Sequence record: NC_028822.1
DNA length: 40,829 nucleotides
Origin: Escherichia phage P483
Strand: one strand, 5' to 3'
The stretch's first letter is position 1. Each line of letters starts with the position of its first letter. Below, in pieces: positions 880 through 40,422 of the stretch. Under the pieces are notes generated by a model. The model had not been told where the DNA came from. It ran no database searches and saw only the letters and a list, made by a program, of their open reading frames with translations. A program made the position numbers and the translations under genes.

Positions 880-2904
880 TTATTGGTTTTGAACTAAGAT
901 TCGCGTAGGGACTGAACGGTTGTCTTGGTCGTTACGGAAAGTTCGCCCGTTGTTAGAGATTGTAAAGGTCAACCAGCCGCCCATAGACGAGATATAGTAA
1001 GCCCCATTATCCCCAATCTGAACAGGGTTCCAGCGACCGTTGGTTTGAATCCAGATGGTTCTCCATCGGACATCCTGTGAGAGACCTACGGAAACACCGC
1101 CACCAGCAGAGCCTTTCCAGACCTCAGCCCACCCAGCGTTCTTGCGGACATAGCGACCATCGCCTTGGGCTTGTGTCAATCGACCATTCACTAGGTTGTT
1201 CGTCTCGCTCTTGTTGTAGGCATGTTCGCCAAGGCGTTTGTTTACCCAAGCGTCGATATAAGACCCATACTTCTTGATGTATAAGTTACCATCAGGCGGG
1301 ATATACCACCCCTTATTACTAGATAGCAGTCCATCAATCGTCATGGTCAGTGTGTGGTCATGACCCCCGTCTCCCTTAAGTTGGATGATACCCTCATGAA
1401 AGTTGTTGCTACCTTTCGATACCATGCCAATAGAGAATGCCGCCGGATAACCATTAGAGCGTCTACCATATTGTTTAATCATAGGGTAATACACGTTGCC
1501 ATCCTGATTTCCGGGGAGGCTTTGCGAGTAAGGGGCATTGTTATTCAACTGGCTTGCAAACCCTCCTGACCCAAAAGTTGACTCAGTGTAGAATCTCTCG
1601 TCAGCCCTAATATACTTAGAGACTCGAAGATACCCATCCATAGAGACGTTCTGGTAGAATCGAGAGTCATGGTGAGCGTGGAATCCCCCATAGAAGTCAT
1701 GACGACCGTGCCCATTGGAGCGACCATCAGGCCACGTAGAAGGGTCTGTATTTCCAAACACATAGAAGTCCATGCGTTTTGTACCAGCCTGAATCCACTG
1801 TTCCCATACGGTATCCTTAGCGCCCTGTCCACGCCACTGATTCCATACTAAATCAACTGGTTGTGTGTCATCGCCTCTAGCATCATTGTGGAGCGTTAAA
1901 ACACTAGAGCCTACCTTGCCTTTAAAGTAAACATCACTATCCTCAACCCTGTCAATGGCCTCTGCAAGTGCATTCATGCTGCCTAACTTGTCGGCCTCAG
2001 TCTTAGCACGGTCAGCTTCACTCTTAGAGCGGTTAGCCTCAGTGTTAGCACGGTCTGCATGTCCTTTAGCGGTCTCAACATGTGCAGCAGCCTTGGCAAC
2101 CTCAGCAGCAGCTTTAGTCACTTCTCCGGCAGCACGATTGGCCTCATCACGGGCACGATTGGCCTCAGAGTTGGAACGGTCAGCTTGCTTCTTGGCCTCA
2201 GCGACACTTGCGGTCATACTATCAGCATAACCTTTAGCTCGGTTGGCCTCAGAGTTGGAACGGTCAGCTTGCTTCTTGGACTCAACTGCTTGTTGCGTTG
2301 AGACACCTGCCTGTTGCGTTGAGCGGTCAGCTTCACGTTTAGCACGGTCAGCTTCATCACGTGAGCGGTTAGCTTCCTTGTTAGAACGGTTAGCATGTTC
2401 ATCAGCTTTGGTCACAGCGTTCCAAGCAGACGACTCGCGCTCTTTTACTTGCTTCAGTGGGACAGCATCATAGTCACCAGTAGCGAACGCTAGGTTCACA
2501 ATCTTACGACCACGGGCATCCAAGTGACCATCATTGTTGACACCAATGGTATCCGCAGTTAGGTCTCGTGCCTCTTCAGCTACGTGCAGCGTCTGAATCT
2601 GTGAGATGTTAAGGTCATACGCACGAAGGATTGAGCCATCAGCAAAGTCAACCAGACGGTCGGTTGCAGAAGTGAATCTACGAATCTCAATCATCTGATA
2701 ACCATCGGCAGCAGTCCACGAACGGGAGGTTGTGATTTGGGTCTTAGTGGTAAAGCGATAGTCCTGATTAAGAACCAACTCTTTACGGTCTTTCCCGATG
2801 AGTGTCACTTGGACGAACTTACGTGCTAAATACTCAAAGGTAATCGTGAAGTTCACGGCACCGTTCAGCGGGTAAGTACGTACAGTGGAAATTTTGTTAG
2901 CCAT
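880..2904 (-). CDS. 17: Tail fiber protein (T7 gp17-like) with an expanded repetitive coiled-coil shaft
   Basis: Start moved to internal ATG at 2904 (MANKISTVRTYPLNG..., SD AGGAGG upstream); N-terminal 150 aa and C-terminal tip resemble T7 gp17 as recalled; 674 aa versus 553 in T7. Confidence 0.9.
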   Translation of the reverse strand: MANKISTVRTYPLNGAVNFTITFEYLARKFVQVTLIGKDRKELVLNQDYRFTTKTQITTSRSWTAADGYQMIEIRRFTSATDRLVDFADGSILRAYDLNISQIQTLHVAEEARDLTADTIGVNNDGHLDARGRKIVNLAFATGDYDAVPLKQVKERESSAWNAVTKADEHANRSNKEANRSRDEADRAKREADRSTQQAGVSTQQAVESKKQADRSNSEANRAKGYADSMTASVAEAKKQADRSNSEANRARDEANRAAGEVTKAAAEVAKAAAHVETAKGHADRANTEANRSKSEADRAKTEADKLGSMNALAEAIDRVEDSDVYFKGKVGSSVLTLHNDARGDDTQPVDLVWNQWRGQGAKDTVWEQWIQAGTKRMDFYVFGNTDPSTWPDGRSNGHGRHDFYGGFHAHHDSRFYQNVSMDGYLRVSKYIRADERFYTESTFGSGGFASQLNNNAPYSQSLPGNQDGNVYYPMIKQYGRRSNGYPAAFSIGMVSKGSNNFHEGIIQLKGDGGHDHTLTMTIDGLLSSNKGWYIPPDGNLYIKKYGSYIDAWVNKRLGEHAYNKSETNNLVNGRLTQAQGDGRYVRKNAGWAEVWKGSAGGGVSVGLSQDVRWRTIWIQTNGRWNPVQIGDNGAYYISSMGGWLTFTISNNGRTFRNDQDNRSVPTRILVQNQ
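2161..2279 (-). repeat. Two perfect 35-bp direct repeats inside the tail-fiber shaft coding region
   Basis: ggcctcagagttggaacggtcagcttgcttcttgg at 2161-2195 and 2245-2279; encodes KKQADRSNSEANRA twice. Confidence 0.85.
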
Positions 2905-2953
2905 CTGTAGCCTCCTTTCGGTTAGGTATAATAGGAGGGAAGCTGTGAGAGCC

Positions 2954-2976
2954 TTCCCCAATAGTGAGTCGTATTG
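2954..2976 (-). promoter_or_regulatory. Phage RNAP promoter phi17
   Basis: Minus strand reads CAATACGACTCACTATTGGGGAA. Confidence 0.85.
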
Positions 2977-2977
2977 T

Positions 2978-5900
2978 TTACTTCTTGTCAGCCTTAATGT
3001 GAACACCGTTGGCCTCATAGAACTTAATGAGCATCTGTTGAGAGATTGGGTCGTTAGGAATCATCTCTCGGTGAGCATTCATTAAGCCAGTCATCATCTC
3101 ACGCTCGGTCGGTTTGTTAGGAGCCGTAAGGACACCATAAGCATTTCGACCAGTAGCTAGAGCAGCACCAGCGAAGCCAAGAGCAGGAACCTGTTCACCA
3201 ATAGCGCCCATAATGGAATCACCCATGTCACGAGAAGTCACCGCCTTATTGCGTTCACGCTTGTCATCACCTTTCGGTAGAATCGTAGAGCGAACCATAA
3301 GACCTTGGTCGTAACCAGCAGCACCCATAGCGAAGTTAGCGATACTCAGAGGCGACCCAAGGTGTGAACTTCGGGAGGCCGCTGCGTAGGCAATCATCTT
3401 CGGGTCGAGAGCTTTCTTCAAGTAATCCTTCTGTTGCTCTTTAGGAAGACCAGCAGCTTTCAAGTGAGCCTGTGCCACGTAGTAGGAACCGGCAAGACCA
3501 CCAGAGATAGCATAGGTCAGAGCCATGTCCATAGCGCGATGGTTCTTAAAGGCTTCGTTGCCAGAGCGGATAAACTTAGAGTTCATCGACTTGATGACAA
3601 ACGATTTAAACTGAAGGACTAACTTAGCGGTAGCACCAAACGCATGGGAATCCTGTAAGGAAACCTTATGAGGTCTGAGCATCGTTTCATCAGCAACCTT
3701 ATCAGCTAAACGCCATAAGTCCATAGCACGAGGGTCATTAGCCAGAGCCTTCTTATCCTTGAAGGTGAACTTACCATCTTCACCACGAGTCACGTTCTCC
3801 CGGATGAGAGACTGAATGCCTTCCCACTGTTCCTTAGAGATACTCGCCGACTTCAGCATGTCACCTTTAATCCACTTGTTGGCACCCTTACCAGTGATAG
3901 CATGAGTTACCACATCGCCCATAACACCCTGACGGGCCATGTCCAGAAGGTAGTTTGACGTACCATTGAGGAACTTGGTTAGAGGTGAGCGAGCAGCCAG
4001 TTCTTGAGTTGTGTGCTTAATGGTCCCAACAACCTTTGCTGCAACATCAGGTGTATCAGTTGACTCACGGAGTCGCTGAATGATGTCTTGACGAGTCGGT
4101 CGGATTAACTGGTCGAACTCTTTACCGAACACCATAGAGTGGAGTTCTTTGAGTTCCTTACCGGAGACTGGCTTGTTGCGGAACGCTAAGTCACGCAGTG
4201 CCGGAATGCCATGAAGCATCGCACGGATATTACCCTTCGCCAACATACCGGAGATTTCAGTTAGGTTCTGCAAGCCCATGTATGCGTTCTTCGTAAAGAA
4301 GGACATATCGGACAGAGCACGAACCATAGTGTCACCTACAGTATCCTGATTACGTCGAGCACGACCAGTGAGAATCTTAACGGTATCCTTAAGTGCTTCC
4401 ACTTCACCTTTCATTGTGCCTTTACCTTCAGACTTCTTATCAAGAGCCATGATAGCGTCCTTGAGTTCAGCAGTAGTCTTGCCTGTACCTCCCATGATAG
4501 CAATATCACCATCAACACGGCGGTCATATGCTGGCATCACATGCTTCATATCGAAGTCACGGAGGTCATTCACAGAGAACTGTTGTCCATTCGGTAGAGT
4601 GACTGGCATGTCAGAATCAAACAGGTTACGGGCTTCAAGGAATGAGTTGTTCTCAATCCCAACGAGACCCTCAATGTTATCGTCAATGACACTTGAAGAG
4701 TTGAACTCATCGGTCTTCGCAATACCATAAGCCTTGTCCATAGCGTACTTCTCAGCCATCTGACTAAGCATAGCCTCTTCGTCTACCTTTGGTTCCACCT
4801 TCTCGTCTGTGCCAAACTTCTGGCGCTCTGAAGGTTTAGCCGGAGCAGCTTGTGCACCTTTGGCAGCAGAGGCGGCTTCTTCAGCTTCGGCGGTGGCTCT
4901 GGTGATTCTGTCTTGGACCTTAGTAGCCTGTCCTTTCATGTATTCGAGACGCTCTGTGTTAACACGGACGTGAGACTTCTGGGTCTCAATCATCTGCTTC
5001 CGGCTCTCAATCTTAACAGGAATGGTTTTGCTATTAGGTTTAGCAGCTAGTTTTTCTTCCAACTCCTTCAGCTTAGCCTCATGCGAAGCCAGTCTGTCCT
5101 TGGAGTTCTGGAGTTTCCTTTCACGGTCCGCAACTCGCTTCTCAGCGTTGGTCAGGACGTCTTTTAGTTCTGCTACCTTATCACTTGCCTGTGTAGCTGC
5201 ATCGTCCAGTTTCATCTGGTAACTGGCTGTGTCGACAGACTCTTGGCTTCTGAGGAAGTTCTCAGTGTCAGCCGCAAGTTTGGCATCAGCTTCAGCTTTG
5301 GAGAAAACGTCACTGTTAACCTGTTTAAGGTATTCATCAACACGGGCCTTAACTTCAGGACGTGAATGATAGGATGTCATCCAGCTTGCAGCAATCGCTT
5401 CCTGTAAACCATCAGAACCCCCAAGAGCCTGTGAGTACAACTGCTTGGCTTCCCGTGAGTACACATGAGGAACGTAAGTCCCTTTGTGACGACTGTTAGG
5501 GAAGATAGAGTTGGCCTTGTTACCGAACATCGACGGGTTCTCCATCATCTCACGCTTGAGGTCAAAGTGTTCCTTCATGATGTCCATCACCTTACGTTCT
5601 GCCTTTGTCAAGTTGGCCTGAAGTTCAGGTCTCTCGATAGCCACAGCAGCACGACGATAGATTTCTTGACGGGCACCTTGAGCACCACTCTTGAACATAC
5701 CCACAGACCACTCAGGGTCAGCCATCGCTTCCTTCATTGCACCATAGAGGTCATTGTAGGTTCGCTGGTTGTTACTGTGTAGGCGCTCTTTGATGTCTGA
5801 GGCGGTAGCCCCAAACTTACCATGTGAGCCAGACTCCATACCTGTAGGTGAGCGCACTAAGTCCTTAGCTAGTCCACGGATTTCAGCGTGTTCAGAACGT

Positions 5901-20396: not shown

Positions 20397-20624
20397 TTAA
20401 AGATAGTGATTCTTGACAACCTGTTTTACTTCAGGTTCATCAGTTGATTTAGACTCGTTGACGAACTCAAGTGCCTCACTGTAATAAGTGAATGACACCT
20501 TACGTTCTTCCGGGTAGTCCTTAAAGTGGCACCAGAACGGGAACCACTCATGACGGAACTGCGGGTAATATAAAGTCTCACCTGTAGTCATTCGGACTTC
20601 TCGAATCCTGTATCGCCATGCCAT
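20397..20624 (-). CDS. Hypothetical protein (T7 gene 5.3 position)
   Basis: 75 aa ORF with SD GGAGG, between DNA polymerase and 5.5. Confidence 0.6.
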   Translation of the reverse strand: MAWRYRIREVRMTTGETLYYPQFRHEWFPFWCHFKDYPEERKVSFTYYSEALEFVNESKSTDEPEVKQVVKNHYL

Positions 20625-22764: not shown

Positions 22765-23181
22765 TTAAAATGTAGATTTGCGGTAGCCCATGAAGTTCTT
22801 CGGGTCAATCACACGCAGGTTCTTGTGGTTCATCTTGTGGTACTGAATACCAGCGACTGTACCCATTGCGTCAATACGTGTCACACGGGAACACCAAATG
22901 TCAGTCCCTTCGACCTTACGGTCATACCAAATGTTTGCGTTGCTGGTGGAGGTACAGAAGTCCCCAACCTTGATGTGGGTCATCTTGTCTGCATCGAAAG
23001 TCTGCATACCAACGCTACCACACTTGGCTACTGGTTTGACCCATTTACCGTACTTGCGGGTCCACCCTAAGTTCTTCAGGATGTGGACAGCGGAGTCACG
23101 AGCACATTCATGCTCTTTAACGTCTGCCAGTTCTGCTTCCAGTTTAGCGATTTCAGCTTCGATTACGGTACGATTACGCAT
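22765..23181 (-). CDS. Hypothetical protein (T7 gene 4.7 position)
   Basis: 138 aa (T7 gp4.7 is 135 aa); ATG 14 nt after the phi4.7 start site. Confidence 0.7.
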   Translation of the reverse strand: MRNRTVIEAEIAKLEAELADVKEHECARDSAVHILKNLGWTRKYGKWVKPVAKCGSVGMQTFDADKMTHIKVGDFCTSTSNANIWYDRKVEGTDIWCSRVTRIDAMGTVAGIQYHKMNHKNLRVIDPKNFMGYRKSTF

Positions 23182-28163: not shown

Positions 28164-28426
28164 TAGAACACCTCCTTGATACGTGCAATGACCAGACGGA
28201 CTTTAGGGAAACGCGTGACGAGAACCGGGATGAAAGGCCGGGAGCCAGTGGTCGCTTCTTTATATAAGCCAGTGGTGATTACAGCGTGAACACGGGGTGC
28301 TAACTCAATGGTCGAACCAAGCACTTTAGGGATGACTGCGTGTTTCTCAGAGGCCAGAACCGTCGAGCGGTCAGCACCACGAGCCGAAAAGATACCATTA
28401 GATTTGTTGAAGTGAAGTCTTAACAT
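28163..28426 (-). CDS. Hypothetical protein (T7 gene 1.6 position)
   Basis: Start assigned to the second ATG (28426) because the phi1.6 start site falls inside the first ATG (28441) and the transcript 5' end GGAGGA provides the SD. Confidence 0.6.
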   Translation of the reverse strand: MLRLHFNKSNGIFSARGADRSTVLASEKHAVIPKVLGSTIELAPRVHAVITTGLYKEATTGSRPFIPVLVTRFPKVRLVIARIKEVF

Positions 28427-28433
28427 AGTTGTG

Positions 28434-28456
28434 TCCTCCATAGGTGAGTCGTATTA
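28434..28456 (-). promoter_or_regulatory. Phage RNAP promoter phi1.6
   Basis: Minus strand reads TAATACGACTCACCTATGGAGGA. Confidence 0.75.
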
Positions 28457-28534
28457 ACAATCAGGCCAGCAGTTGTCATCAATGATAACGAGAGCAAAGG
28501 TGGCAACAATGATAGCAACAATTAGAAATAGCAT
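28454..28534 (-). CDS. Small hydrophobic peptide (T7 gene 1.5 position)
   Basis: 26 codons, MLFLIVAIIVATFALVIIDDNCWPDC; its SD GGAGGA is the 5' end of the phi1.5 transcript. Confidence 0.45.
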   Translation of the reverse strand: MLFLIVAIIVATFALVIIDDNCWPDC

Positions 28535-28541
28535 GAGGTTG

Positions 28542-28564
28542 TTCCTCCATAGTGAGTCGTATAG
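28542..28564 (-). promoter_or_regulatory. Phage RNAP promoter phi1.5
   Basis: Minus strand reads CTATACGACTCACTATGGAGGAA. Confidence 0.75.
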
Positions 28565-28598
28565 AAACGCAAAAAGGCCAGCCCACGAAGGACTGACC
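28565..28598 (-). terminator. TE-like intrinsic terminator for host RNAP at the end of the early operon
   Basis: Minus-strand RNA GGUCAGUCC-UUCGU-GGGCUGGCC (9-bp stem, two G-U) followed by UUUUUGCGUUU. Confidence 0.7.
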
Positions 28599-28604
28599 GT
28601 TTGT

Positions 28605-29093
28605 TTATGATAGTGCTTCATCACGGGCGGCTATCGCCTCGTCAAGCGTTTTGTGGTAGGAAACATGCCTAGCACCATTCCTCCTGATACAGACAGTATA
28701 TAGTTCCCTGTCATTCCTCTTAGAGATGTGCTTCAATCCCAGCTTGTTGGTCGTGAATGTACCTTTGTTCTGGTTGTTAACAGCACAAGTAACCACCCTA
28801 AGATTCTCTATGAGGTTGTTACCTTTGTTTCGGTCTATGTGGTCAACTTGTAGTCCTTCAGGTATTGCACCATTTATTAGTTCCCAAATTACCCGATGGA
28901 CTCGTAGGTGATGTGCCACTCCGTTGACCCTCACACATAATACCCAATAGCCAGCCTTATTCAAGTATCCTACTGGCTTACCGTTGGGCTTGGAGAGGCC
29001 ACTAGGAGCCTCCCTGTTTACTTTAAATCTTTTCTTTAGGATTGTCCTCAGTTCCTCGGAAGCAGGAGAATGAGGGATGCCGCAATGACCCAT
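28605..29093 (-). CDS. HNH homing endonuclease with AP2-like DNA-binding domain
   Basis: 162 aa; HNH motif region VDHIDRNKGNNLIENLRVVTCAVNNQNKG and AP2-like YTVCIRRNGARHVSYHKTLDEAIAARDEA; start overlaps the last 70 nt of ligase. Confidence 0.75.
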   Translation of the reverse strand: MGHCGIPHSPASEELRTILKKRFKVNREAPSGLSKPNGKPVGYLNKAGYWVLCVRVNGVAHHLRVHRVIWELINGAIPEGLQVDHIDRNKGNNLIENLRVVTCAVNNQNKGTFTTNKLGLKHISKRNDRELYTVCIRRNGARHVSYHKTLDEAIAARDEALS

Positions 29094-30105
29094 CGCTTGT
29101 TTCCTCCATGTAGTTTACTTGACACTGCCAGCCCTGATAAGGGTTAACCCAATCACTCTCAGTTCTTACATTTAGGATGTTTGTAGCATCAAAAACGTTA
29201 TTGGTAAACTCATCCATCAACGCTTGGCTAATGTTGTTGGCAGAGACTACGCGACCGGACTCAAGGAGAACCTCGAAGCCAATCACTTTACCTTCGTTAG
29301 CCAGACCCGGAGTACCCCAATTGAGTCCCACAATGACACCATCAGCTTCACACTCAGGCTTCATCTTCCAGTAGCCAGACTTCTTGCCACGCATGTAGAA
29401 GCCCAGAGGGTCTTTGACTACCAGACCTTCATGACCATCGGCACGGGCTTTCTCATAGAGGGCATTCAGTTCTACCATATCGTAGACCTCGTAGCTCTCA
29501 GAGATGTCCCATTCGATTTCAGGGAAGTGCTCACGCAGCACTGGCAGCATAGCCTTAACGTGCTCGCGCATCAGTAGGTTCATCACTTCGTAGGTCTCAC
29601 CGGAGACCATAGAGTCAAACGGCATGACACCATAGAGGATAACCTTTAGTTTCTCAGTGTCTAGGTGGAATGGAATCTTACCATCAACCGTGAAGTCACC
29701 ATTCTTGTTCTTCTTGAGAGGGACACCAGCCACATCATTGTGAGCCAGTAGGTTGTCCGTCTTGACCCACTTGGTACGCAGGAGGCCAGACCCTGTGTTA
29801 AAGTCCACGCCTTTGACCATCAGTTCACCATCAAGCATGAAGCCATCAGGGAAGATACAGCGGTCGTCTTTCAGGAGCATCTCCCAGCGCTTGTCGTACC
29901 CGTTGAGATGTGACAGAGCAGGAATCTCTTTAGAGACACGAGAGAGCCACAATGAGTCAGCCGTATTGTCAACTACAATGTTACCACGAACGCCATCATA
30001 TTTAATGTCAGCAATCAGGTAGCCAGCTTTGTCGAGAGCTTTATTAACGGCAGACTCAACGAATGATACAGCTTTATGTGGATTTGTCTTGAATGTGATT
30101 TCCAT
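29023..30105 (-). CDS. 1.3: ATP-dependent DNA ligase (T7 gp1.3-like)
   Basis: Start at internal ATG 30105 with SD TAGGAGT; KYDGVRG adenylation motif; 360 aa; strong similarity to T7 ligase as recalled. Confidence 0.95.
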   Translation of the reverse strand: MEITFKTNPHKAVSFVESAVNKALDKAGYLIADIKYDGVRGNIVVDNTADSLWLSRVSKEIPALSHLNGYDKRWEMLLKDDRCIFPDGFMLDGELMVKGVDFNTGSGLLRTKWVKTDNLLAHNDVAGVPLKKNKNGDFTVDGKIPFHLDTEKLKVILYGVMPFDSMVSGETYEVMNLLMREHVKAMLPVLREHFPEIEWDISESYEVYDMVELNALYEKARADGHEGLVVKDPLGFYMRGKKSGYWKMKPECEADGVIVGLNWGTPGLANEGKVIGFEVLLESGRVVSANNISQALMDEFTNNVFDATNILNVRTESDWVNPYQGWQCQVNYMEETSDGSLRHPSFSCFRGTEDNPKEKI

Positions 30106-38091: not shown

Positions 38092-39849
38092 TTACCACTC
38101 AATGAAGCAGCTAGAATCTCCATCGTCCTCGTAGTAGATGTCCACGCCACCAACATCGTAGCTATGGATAGCATCACCACCAACGGTCTGTTTCTCCATG
38201 TGGTGTTCAAGGAACTCAAGGGTCATCTCTTCTTCACCTACACGGCTGTCCACAAGCATCCCTTCACGCAGGAACTCGATACCCAATGCGATAGCATCAA
38301 GTCGGTCATCGTGTGCCACAGCGCCTCGCTCACGGGTCATACGGGTCATCTGATAGAACGCACTGTAGCGAACATCATGTTTCCCATCAAGGTCACGAGC
38401 AGTCTGGTAGTCCTCACGGATAACCTCATCACGAATGACCAGCTTGTGCGCACCCATCAACGGTTCGATAGTATCGCAGATTCGCATCTCCTTCATGCCT
38501 TTAGCACGGATTTCCTCTAAGGCACACTTGTGATGCTTCAGGAGAATCGGAGAGAAAATCTTACCGAACATACCGTCACCGAAGTTGGACTCGTGGACTA
38601 CTGTCTGTACATTCCACTGCTTGGCCTTCTTAGCGAGCTTCTCTAGGGTAGCATCATCGTAACCACCACGGAACCCACCGACTTCCATCAAGTAGATATA
38701 ACCGTTAAGTGAGTAGAGGACTGCGTACCCGGTCTCATCCTTACCACGACCACTTGGGTCAATGACCAGAATCTTAGACTGATACTCAGCGGTACGAGAA
38801 GAGCACGTATGGAACGCATGGATGTCATCACCCTTCAGACCAACGTTAGGGAGTTCCTCATTGCGGTTCTGACGGTTCGGCAACCACTGGTAAGACAATG
38901 GGGCACGTTCAGGGTCCACAGCGCACACGATAGCGTCACGGAGTCGTAGCGGGTACTTCTCGGCATCACTAAGGTTCGGGTTAAGCATGAACTGAAGCGT
39001 GTAGCCAGCTTTGCCATATTCGAGTTCACGTTCACGGAGGTCATCCATGTCGAATCGAATAGGGTCAGTAGGTTGACCACGAAGTAACTCGAAGCCTTCA
39101 TCGTATTCAGCCTTAAGCATCGGAGCCAAGCGGTCCCCATAGTAGAGAGCCTCAGCATCATTACGTGGATACTGTGCAGGCCAGATTACCGTACTGTACC
39201 CTTTGTTATCCTCAAGTTCCTTGTAGAGCGTCATCTCGGTTTGAGGTGTGCCAAGGTAGATAACACGAGAGGTAGGCAGCGGCTTAAGTAATGCAGCGAA
39301 CTCAGTTACCAACGTCCAGAGCTTCTCACGAGCAGAACTCGTAGAGCTATTACCGGGAACCTCAACGTCATCTGCGATAATAATGTCAGCACGGCTACCA
39401 GTTAACTGACCAGTAATACCTACAGACTTCACAGAGGGTGAGTGGTCGGGTTTCGCCAAGCCAACGTCAAAGCTAATAACAGAGTCACGCTGTCCCGGTC
39501 GAGGTTTCAACTCAGAGAGGAACGGAAGGAGGTCGATGATGTTCTTAATGAAGATGGAGTTAGCGTCCGCACGTTCCTTAGAGGCAGACACGATGAGAAC
39601 CTTAAGTTGAGGGTCACGCCATAAGACCCACACGACGAACGCACAGGTGATAAAGGACTTGCCGATACCACGGAACGCCTGAAGGATAAACTTCTTGTGG
39701 TCGCCGTTAGCGAGTGTACGTGCCATATCAATCTGACACTTGGTTGGTTTAGGTAAGTTCAGAGCCTTCCATAAGACGAACAGGAAGGCCACGAAGTCAC
39801 CCTTAAGTTGCGCCACGATGAGCGCATTCTTGTTTGCTTGAGTAGACAT
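38092..39849 (-). CDS. 19: Terminase large subunit / DNA maturase B (T7 gp19-like)
   Basis: 585 aa (T7 gp19 is 586 aa); Walker-type ATPase and nuclease regions; SD TAGGAGG. Confidence 0.95.
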
Positions 39850-39864
39850 TGTGGCCTCCTATTG

Positions 39865-40422
39865 TTACTCGGCAGGTTTCTCTAAGGCAGCAATGCGCTT
39901 CTCAAGAGCCTTGATAGTGTCGGTCTTAGATACAGCCCCGTCGATGTTACTAGGTTGGAACATAACGGAAACGCTCTTCCCTTCGCTATCCACGAACTGT
40001 GTACCAAATTCACTATCAGACGCAGAAAGCGTTGCACTAACTAAGGAAGCCATACCACCTTCAGGTTCAGGGTCAGCACCAGTCCACTCTTTGTATACGT
40101 CGATTCGAACCATACCGAGTCGCTCAGTGCTTTGCTCATTCAGGAACACCGTCATGAACCCGCTACCCGGTTTAGACTCGACGGAGCCACCCCAAGTGGA
40201 CATAAGGGTCTCGAACGTAGCGTGTTGCTCAGTGGTGCCATCACTCAGTTGGATAACGTATTCAACCTTAGAGTAGCCCTCAACCTTAACCATCTCCGAA
40301 GCTGGGATGTCGATACGCCCAACACGAAGACCAATATTGTTGCGGTCGTACACATCACGACTGTCTGGTGAGCGACCATTGATGGTCCATAGTGTGCGGG
40401 TTCTTGAGTTTGTAGTAGCCAT
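39865..40422 (-). CDS. Hypothetical late protein inserted between Rz/Rz1 and terminase large subunit (no T7/T3 counterpart recognised)
   Basis: 185 aa ORF, ATG 40422 preceded by SD GAAGGAGAAG at optimal spacing; starts 3 nt after the Rz stop and ends 16 nt before the gene 19 start; no TM segment, no Cys, C-terminal amphipathic helix. Confidence 0.75.
   Translation of the reverse strand: MATTNSRTRTLWTINGRSPDSRDVYDRNNIGLRVGRIDIPASEMVKVEGYSKVEYVIQLSDGTTEQHATFETLMSTWGGSVESKPGSGFMTVFLNEQSTERLGMVRIDVYKEWTGADPEPEGGMASLVSATLSASDSEFGTQFVDSEGKSVSVMFQPSNIDGAVSKTDTIKALEKRIAALEKPAE

Follow-up and report, generated by a model that had tools for sequence, protein, structure and literature searches.

Downstream of DNA ligase and ahead of the early terminator, Escherichia phage P483 carries a free-standing gene for a nuclease of the HNN-AP2 class, which by sequence comparison is a new allele of the known gene 1.45 family. 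We consider it a probable homing endonuclease gene, with homing that is active or was so recently. We analyzed the whole 40,829-nucleotide sequence (NC_028822.1), referred to here as the window. The observations that support this reading are the domain architecture of the protein, its catalytic residues, purifying selection on the gene, patchy presence at one site, and a foreign segment with sharp edges into which the tail of the ligase gene falls. From these we infer cleavage, a cut site, either a nick or a double-strand cut, immunity of the carrier and homing. Members of the gene 1.45 family have been annotated at the ligase junction since the phiYeO3-12 genome and the HNN-AP2 class is well known. 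The finding is real but ordinary, and it leaves current understanding unchanged.

The window is a T7-like phage genome in circularly permuted form, and its genes lie on the minus strand. The closest database relatives are the Berlinvirus-type phages PYps50T, BA14, WW1 and FE44, which match about 90% of the first 25 kb at about 93% nucleotide identity. Read along the minus strand, the neighborhood runs from gene 1.2 through ligase (1.3), the HNH ORF, the early terminator TE and a promoter to gene 1.5, followed by a further promoter and gene 1.6. This is the order of the carefully annotated BA14 record apart from the added HNH ORF. That TE follows ligase directly in T7, as a sequence-only reading of this DNA had stated, was confirmed. 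The features that matter for the argument are the following.

29023 to 30105, minus strand: gene 1.3 for the ATP-dependent DNA ligase (360 aa), which hosts the insertion (Pfam DNA_ligase_A_M and DNA_ligase_C).
29103 to 29107, minus strand: GGAGG, the Shine-Dalgarno sequence of the HNH gene; it is spelled by ligase codons M-E-E and precedes the ATG by 9 nt (direct reading).
29023 to 29093, minus strand: dual-coding overlap of 71 nt, encoding both the C-terminal tail of ligase (DGSLRHPSFSCFRGTEDNPKEKI, then stop) and HNH residues 1-24 (ORF comparison).
28605 to 29093, minus strand: free-standing HNH (HNN)-AP2 endonuclease gene, 162 aa, positional orthologue of phiYeO3-12 gene 1.45 (ORF and domain matches).
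28608 to 28760, minus strand: C-terminal AP2-like DNA-binding domain, residues about 112-162 (profiles and predicted fold).
About 28605 to 29118, minus strand: foreign, horizontally acquired segment made up of the recoded ligase 3' end and the HNH gene (identity profile against P694).
28564 to 28598, minus strand: early terminator TE, with a 9-bp stem and 5-nt loop (28598-28576) and then the U tract TTTTTGCGTTTC (terminator scan and BA14 alignment).
28541 to 28565, bounds approximate, minus strand: promoter for the phage RNA polymerase, equivalent to phi1.5, TATACGACTCACTATGGAGGAAC (aligned with the annotated phi1.5 of BA14).
28454 to 28534, minus strand: gene 1.5, 26 aa (MLFLIVAIIVATFALVIIDDNCWPDC), the first gene past TE (aligned with the annotated gene 1.5 of BA14).

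The 162-aa ORF had been placed at 28605-29093 with its start inside the last 70 or so nucleotides of ligase, and this holds. The ATG at 29093 is the sole start that yields the full ORF, and each alternative in-frame start was rejected as losing a conserved N-terminal hairpin. The overlap measures 71 nt because ligase ends at 29023. Both start signals, the Shine-Dalgarno sequence and the ATG, sit within the region that encodes conserved motif VI of ligase. At the other end, the stop codon occupies 28605-28607. A terminator-like hairpin had been reported 7 nt beyond it; the hairpin stands, folding at -18.6 kcal/mol (z = -3.8) and aligning with the annotated TE of BA14, while the distance needs correcting to 6 nt since the stem begins at 28598 and the stop codon ends at 28605. 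In some T4 endonuclease genes the ribosome-binding site is hidden by a regulatory hairpin. A masking hairpin of this type was considered for the HNH gene and dropped, the region folding no better than shuffled sequences (z +1.36).

The ligase gene has been left intact beside its neighbor, as a continuous ORF with both ligase domains present, and its product is 65% identical to T7 gp1.3. An intron was likewise rejected, as the ligase ORF is uninterrupted and Rfam, intron models included, gave zero matches for the whole window at gathering thresholds and for 28300-29400 at E <= 1. The description of the gene as free-standing is thus borne out. Just past the ligase stop, inside the HNH ORF, a 5-bp GC-rich hairpin (GAGGC...GCCTC, 28995-29012) lies on the conserved REAPSG codons. 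This is the position at which the authors of the phiYeO3-12 record, differently from the arrangement in the window, put a 'putative early terminator TE' inside gene 1.45. In the window the hairpin has no coding-strand U tract, and a BA14-type TE follows the gene instead.

The nuclease assignment is secure. Pfam HNH_3 (PF13392) matches residues 64-107 with E = 7e-18 and 64.4 bits against a cut-off of 24.8, and PHROG 99 matches with E = 7e-39, which substantiates the HNH motif proposed earlier. The only significant solved relative is I-HmuI (phmmer E = 5.5e-7), the nicking enzyme of Bacillus phage SPO1 (PDB 1U3E). Residues D84-H85, N97 and N106 align with D74-H75, N87 and N96 of that enzyme and are invariant or nearly so across 108 homologues. 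The window ORF is full length and keeps every catalytic and nearly invariant residue. The alignment identifies the motif as the 'HNN' variant, with an intact I-HmuI-type core. The predicted model has a confident fold (pLDDT 90), in which the core adopts the beta-beta-alpha-metal arrangement. I-HmuI shares this core fold and the order Asp-His...Asn...Asn, but it is intron-encoded, carries a C-terminal helix-turn-helix rather than an AP2 domain, and is only about 26-30% identical over about 90-100 residues.

The AP2-type region named in the sequence-only reading found support in profile comparison and in the predicted fold, but not in the Pfam model. Pfam AP2 (PF00847) does not match the whole protein at E <= 0.1, nor does it match the isolated C-terminal 56 aa or T7 gp3.8 even at E <= 10; the domain in the window is too divergent for this model. 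Among the 108 aligned full-length homologues, 50 do match PF00847 (best E 1.5e-8), and a C-terminal profile of the ligase-junction subfamily aligned by hhalign to the AP2-positive homologues with 95.9% probability (E 5.9e-9, 46 columns). Three strands (123-126, 131-138 and 141-147) and a helix (150-161) are predicted, giving the three-stranded antiparallel sheet packed on one helix that characterizes the AP2 fold. As the Pfam AP2 model is unmatched, the assignment rests on profiles and fold, and we accept the predicted domain as 'AP2-like', below the Pfam threshold.

HNN-AP2 enzymes are an established class of homing-type endonucleases in phages (PMC2248197; PMC10448857), and the class has been described from phages, cyanobacteria and protists (Magnani et al. 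2004, as relayed in PMC2248197 and PMC10448857). The HNN-AP2 proteins of the Xanthomonas phages Xp10, OP1 and Xop411 combine the same two domains and have the boxes HR..W, P, DH, DN, NLR and N in common with the window ORF (PMC2248197). Their genes are scattered with no fixed site, whereas the family of the window gene keeps one site.

Within the window the gene has no paralogues (phmmer against all six-frame ORFs). T7 genes 3.8 and 7.7 had been called absent, and this proved right: the interval between genes 3.5 and 4 is only about 130 nt, gene 7.3 lies directly upstream of gene 8, and the window holds no homologues of T7 gp2.8, 5.3 or 7.7. T7 gp3.8 matches solely the HNH ORF (36% over 92 aa, E 2e-14). 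Because it is thus a distant homologue of that ORF, 'absent' has to be read as absent at the 3.8 position. The two proteins share the HNN core and a C-terminal region; gp3.8 differs in its location between genes 3.5 and 4, in its length of 121 aa and in lacking the N-terminal helix and hairpin region.

We examined eight carriers (the window, P1338, pO111, PVN09, JacobBurckhardt, RDN8.1, phiYeO3-12 and KP32) and five non-carriers (BA14, WW1, P694, T7 and T3). Amino acid identities of the homologues to the window ORF are as follows.

P1338 HNH homologue: 75%.
pO111 HNH homologue: 73%.
PVN09 HNH homologue: 66%.
JacobBurckhardt HNH homologue: 58%.
RDN8.1 HNH homologue: 52%.
phiYeO3-12 gp1.45: 48%, residues 1-161.
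KP32 HNH homologue: 45%.

The phiYeO3-12 protein (CAB63597) is annotated as 'homologous to HNH endonuclease'. Together with KP32 gp9 and the 'putative homing endonuclease' of Bas65 JacobBurckhardt it has the same site, length class and HNN plus AP2-like architecture as the window ORF, and the family is 45-75% identical to it in amino acids. All eight carriers have the 71-nt overlap: counted back from the final base of the ligase stop codon, the HNH start is in each case exactly 70 nt away. The right-hand junction varies, with TE lying 3' of the gene in six carriers and the gene abutting a phage promoter instead in phiYeO3-12 and KP32.

At the ligase junction the family spans several Studiervirinae genera, and Berlinvirus-like phages, Teetrevirus and Teseptimavirus each include both carriers and non-carriers. 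The gene is missing from the nearest relatives of the window (BA14, WW1 and P694) and from T3 and T7, and universal presence in the lineage is therefore not what we found. Just one of the 379 megablast records that match the region covers the HNH DNA. A tblastn search returned homologues overlapping the ligase 3' end in many Autographiviridae; judged from a sample spread over the ranking, approximately the top 70-100 of 1985 records are same-site homologues, and the matches sampled further down the ranking are HNH genes located elsewhere in other phages. The exact window protein is absent from a large protein collection, where the best match reaches 70%, and the best identity in IMG/VR is 49%, with no match informative for the ligase-TE junction. 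These comparisons, with at most 75% identity to any database protein, define the window gene as a new allele. The closest homologue, in vB_EcoS_P1338 (2642-3136, 164 aa), is unannotated in GenBank, where the record shows a gap of 600 nt from ligase to the next gene. The pO111 gene is also unannotated, and a spurious opposite-strand ORF is called in its place.

How the gene arrived is recorded in its flanks. Aligned to P694, the minus-strand sequence of the window falls into four stretches.

29131 to 29490: 98-100% identity.
29130 to 29011: 72%, then 60%, then 40% identity.
29010 to 28611: gap, unalignable.
28570 downward: at least 92% identity.

The first clustered differences from the relatives fall on the ligase codons V-N (29118-29113), so the foreign segment extends from about 29118 to 28605, or about 510 bp, and takes the place of about 95 bp in the relatives. 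It takes in the last 24-32 codons of ligase (about 95 nt), where the protein motif DGSLRHPSF is retained though the DNA is recoded. The tail is of the type FRGTEDNPKEKI in the window as against FRGVESDPTVKM in Berlinvirus relatives. In its final 72 nt, the ligase gene shares 86% identity with phiYeO3-12 and 83% with KP32, as against only 58-60% with P694, WW1 and BA14; immediately upstream of the recoded tail, the relatives of the window are 97-100% identical to it. The tail signature PSF(T/S)CF...EK(I/V)-stop occurs in seven of the eight carriers, and RDN8.1 has PSFDQW with the I ending retained. All five non-carriers end in KM-stop and have other residues at the signature positions. The overlapping HNH frame dictates some of the signature, so that the evidence for co-transfer is not fully independent: TCC TGC read one base on gives S-P-A-S in the HNH frame, where GTA ATG of T7 would make a stop.

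Taken as a sequence comparison, the lineage switch of the whole tail still shows joint movement of the nuclease gene and the ligase end, the flanking sequence having been transferred as in a co-conversion tract. The proposal of a mobile insertion into the end of the early operon therefore holds in part. Alignment of the ligase-TE junction with insert-less relatives reveals a sharply bounded foreign segment that close relatives lack, but the event was not a simple insertion since about 95 nt of ligase came along.

The HNH gene is itself a mosaic, its first 20 or so codons resembling phiYeO3-12 and KP32 (MxHCGxPHSPASxELRT) and its body being nearest to P1338 and pO111. In the ligase interior, a patch of about 120 nt (29651-29770, minus strand) is 28-52% identical to P694, WW1, BA14 and P1338, with P694 and WW1 at least 90% identical on either side. 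By its sequence, this patch seems to be another mosaic segment of the ligase gene, independent of the first.

Free-standing genes of the T4 Seg and Mob type are also intergenic, next to a conserved gene, patchy in distribution and co-transferred with their flanks (PMC2988022). They differ in nuclease family, Seg being GIY-YIG, or in the second domain, Mob pairing HNH_3 with a zinc finger in place of AP2 (PMC10448857). Their homing has been shown experimentally, whereas that of the window gene is deduced from sequence. For the ligase-junction (gene 1.45-type) enzymes, the literature that we searched contained annotation-level mentions only and no biochemical or genetic experiments, which is why homing is put forward here as a proposal.

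The proposed course of events is as follows. The enzyme would use an I-HmuI-type beta-beta-alpha-metal core, with His85 as general base, Asp84 and Asn106 as metal ligands and Asn97 in a structural role, and the C-terminal AP2-type domain would supply sequence recognition. From its position upstream of TE, the gene is expected to be co-transcribed with ligase. Host RNA polymerase would transcribe it early, and the phage polymerase, which reads through TE, would do so from phi1.1/phi1.3; translation would start from the Shine-Dalgarno sequence and ATG inside the motif VI coding region. In a mixed infection with an HNH-less relative, the enzyme would nick or cut in or near the ligase 3' end or the ligase-TE junction. 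Recombinational repair, with the carrier genome as template, would then install the gene along with the recoded ligase tail beside it, and the many base changes in this tail may make the carrier immune to cleavage by its own enzyme.

Whether the gene is kept for homing or for another reason bears on how its conservation is read. Against P1338, pN is 0.16 and pS 0.74, and dN/dS is 0.06-0.07 in the measurable pairs (P1338-pO111 and phiYeO3-12-KP32). Substitution patterns thus show purifying selection on the family. Synonymous sites are saturated between its members, so the family is old, and part of the patchy distribution could, on these sequences, stem from repeated loss and not from recent homing. 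Strong purifying selection on a family that is old, widely kept and constant in its site would also suit an active nuclease that is kept because it benefits the phage, either by cutting competitor genomes (interference or marker exclusion) or by attacking host or defence-element DNA, with homing incidental or absent. PMC11620839 describes an intron-encoded homing endonuclease that mediates competition between co-infecting phages, and homing and domestication are held to be inseparable by bioinformatics alone (PMC10448857). Yet most close relatives grow without the gene, and homing-type gene conversion would be expected to leave the kind of trace seen here, a foreign segment to which a transferred piece of ligase belongs. 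We regard benefit to the phage as the main reason for retention as a minority possibility, one that overlaps with homing and does not exclude it.

Less likely still is that the gene is a decaying relic, once mobile, now fixed in its lineage, inactive and heading for loss. Homing endonuclease genes often degenerate once fixed, as HNN-AP2 cases in Xanthomonas phages illustrate (PMC2248197), and within the present family PVN09 is substituted at conserved positions and some database homologues (P0005, P0006) are truncated. The window allele itself argues against decay, being full length with intact residues, a confidently predicted fold and pN far below pS. An HNH protein that assists terminase in packaging, of the HK97 gp74 type, we think very improbable. 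Terminase-adjacent HNH proteins do act in this way in some phages (PMC8861465; PMC10448857), but the window gene lies by ligase in the early/class II region, about 9 kb from the large terminase gene (38092-39849), close relatives package their DNA normally without it, and its closest solved relative is a homing enzyme. We rejected a terminase-helper role, both for the location of the gene and because relatives can dispense with it.

Of homing, favored here, a more specific form is conceivable, though we give it rather less than even weight. The mobile unit may be a fixed module of ligase tail plus nuclease, with the signals for starting the nuclease embedded in the motif VI codons of ligase; the recoded tail would be the immunity determinant and the motif VI coding sequence of tail-less alleles the target. 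If true, this would provide a simple model, open to experiment, of homing and of competition among co-infecting phages of the T7 group, and it would account for the clustering of recombination boundaries where the early operon ends.

The value of these results lies mainly in annotation and phage engineering. Since related phages do without the gene, its deletion from a chassis for therapy or synthetic work is probably feasible. Were the nuclease active, it could skew both the result of mixed infections and recombination at the ligase-TE junction. With an overlap of invariably 71 nt and a ligase tail that moves along with the gene, the family is a convenient candidate should a free-standing homing endonuclease of the T7 group be studied by experiment for the first time.

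Two further observations concern other parts of these genomes. P694, whose ligase is the most similar to that of the window, has a tandem duplication of the 1.1/1.2 pair at 1181-2061 and hence two dGTPase-inhibitor genes upstream of ligase; the longer span of its megablast match is due to this duplication and not to the HNH gene. On the minus strand of the window, three ORFs (22765-23181, 39865-40422 and 20397-20624) have no Pfam family, and that at 22765-23181 is homologous to T7 gp4.7, with 47% identity over 113 aa.
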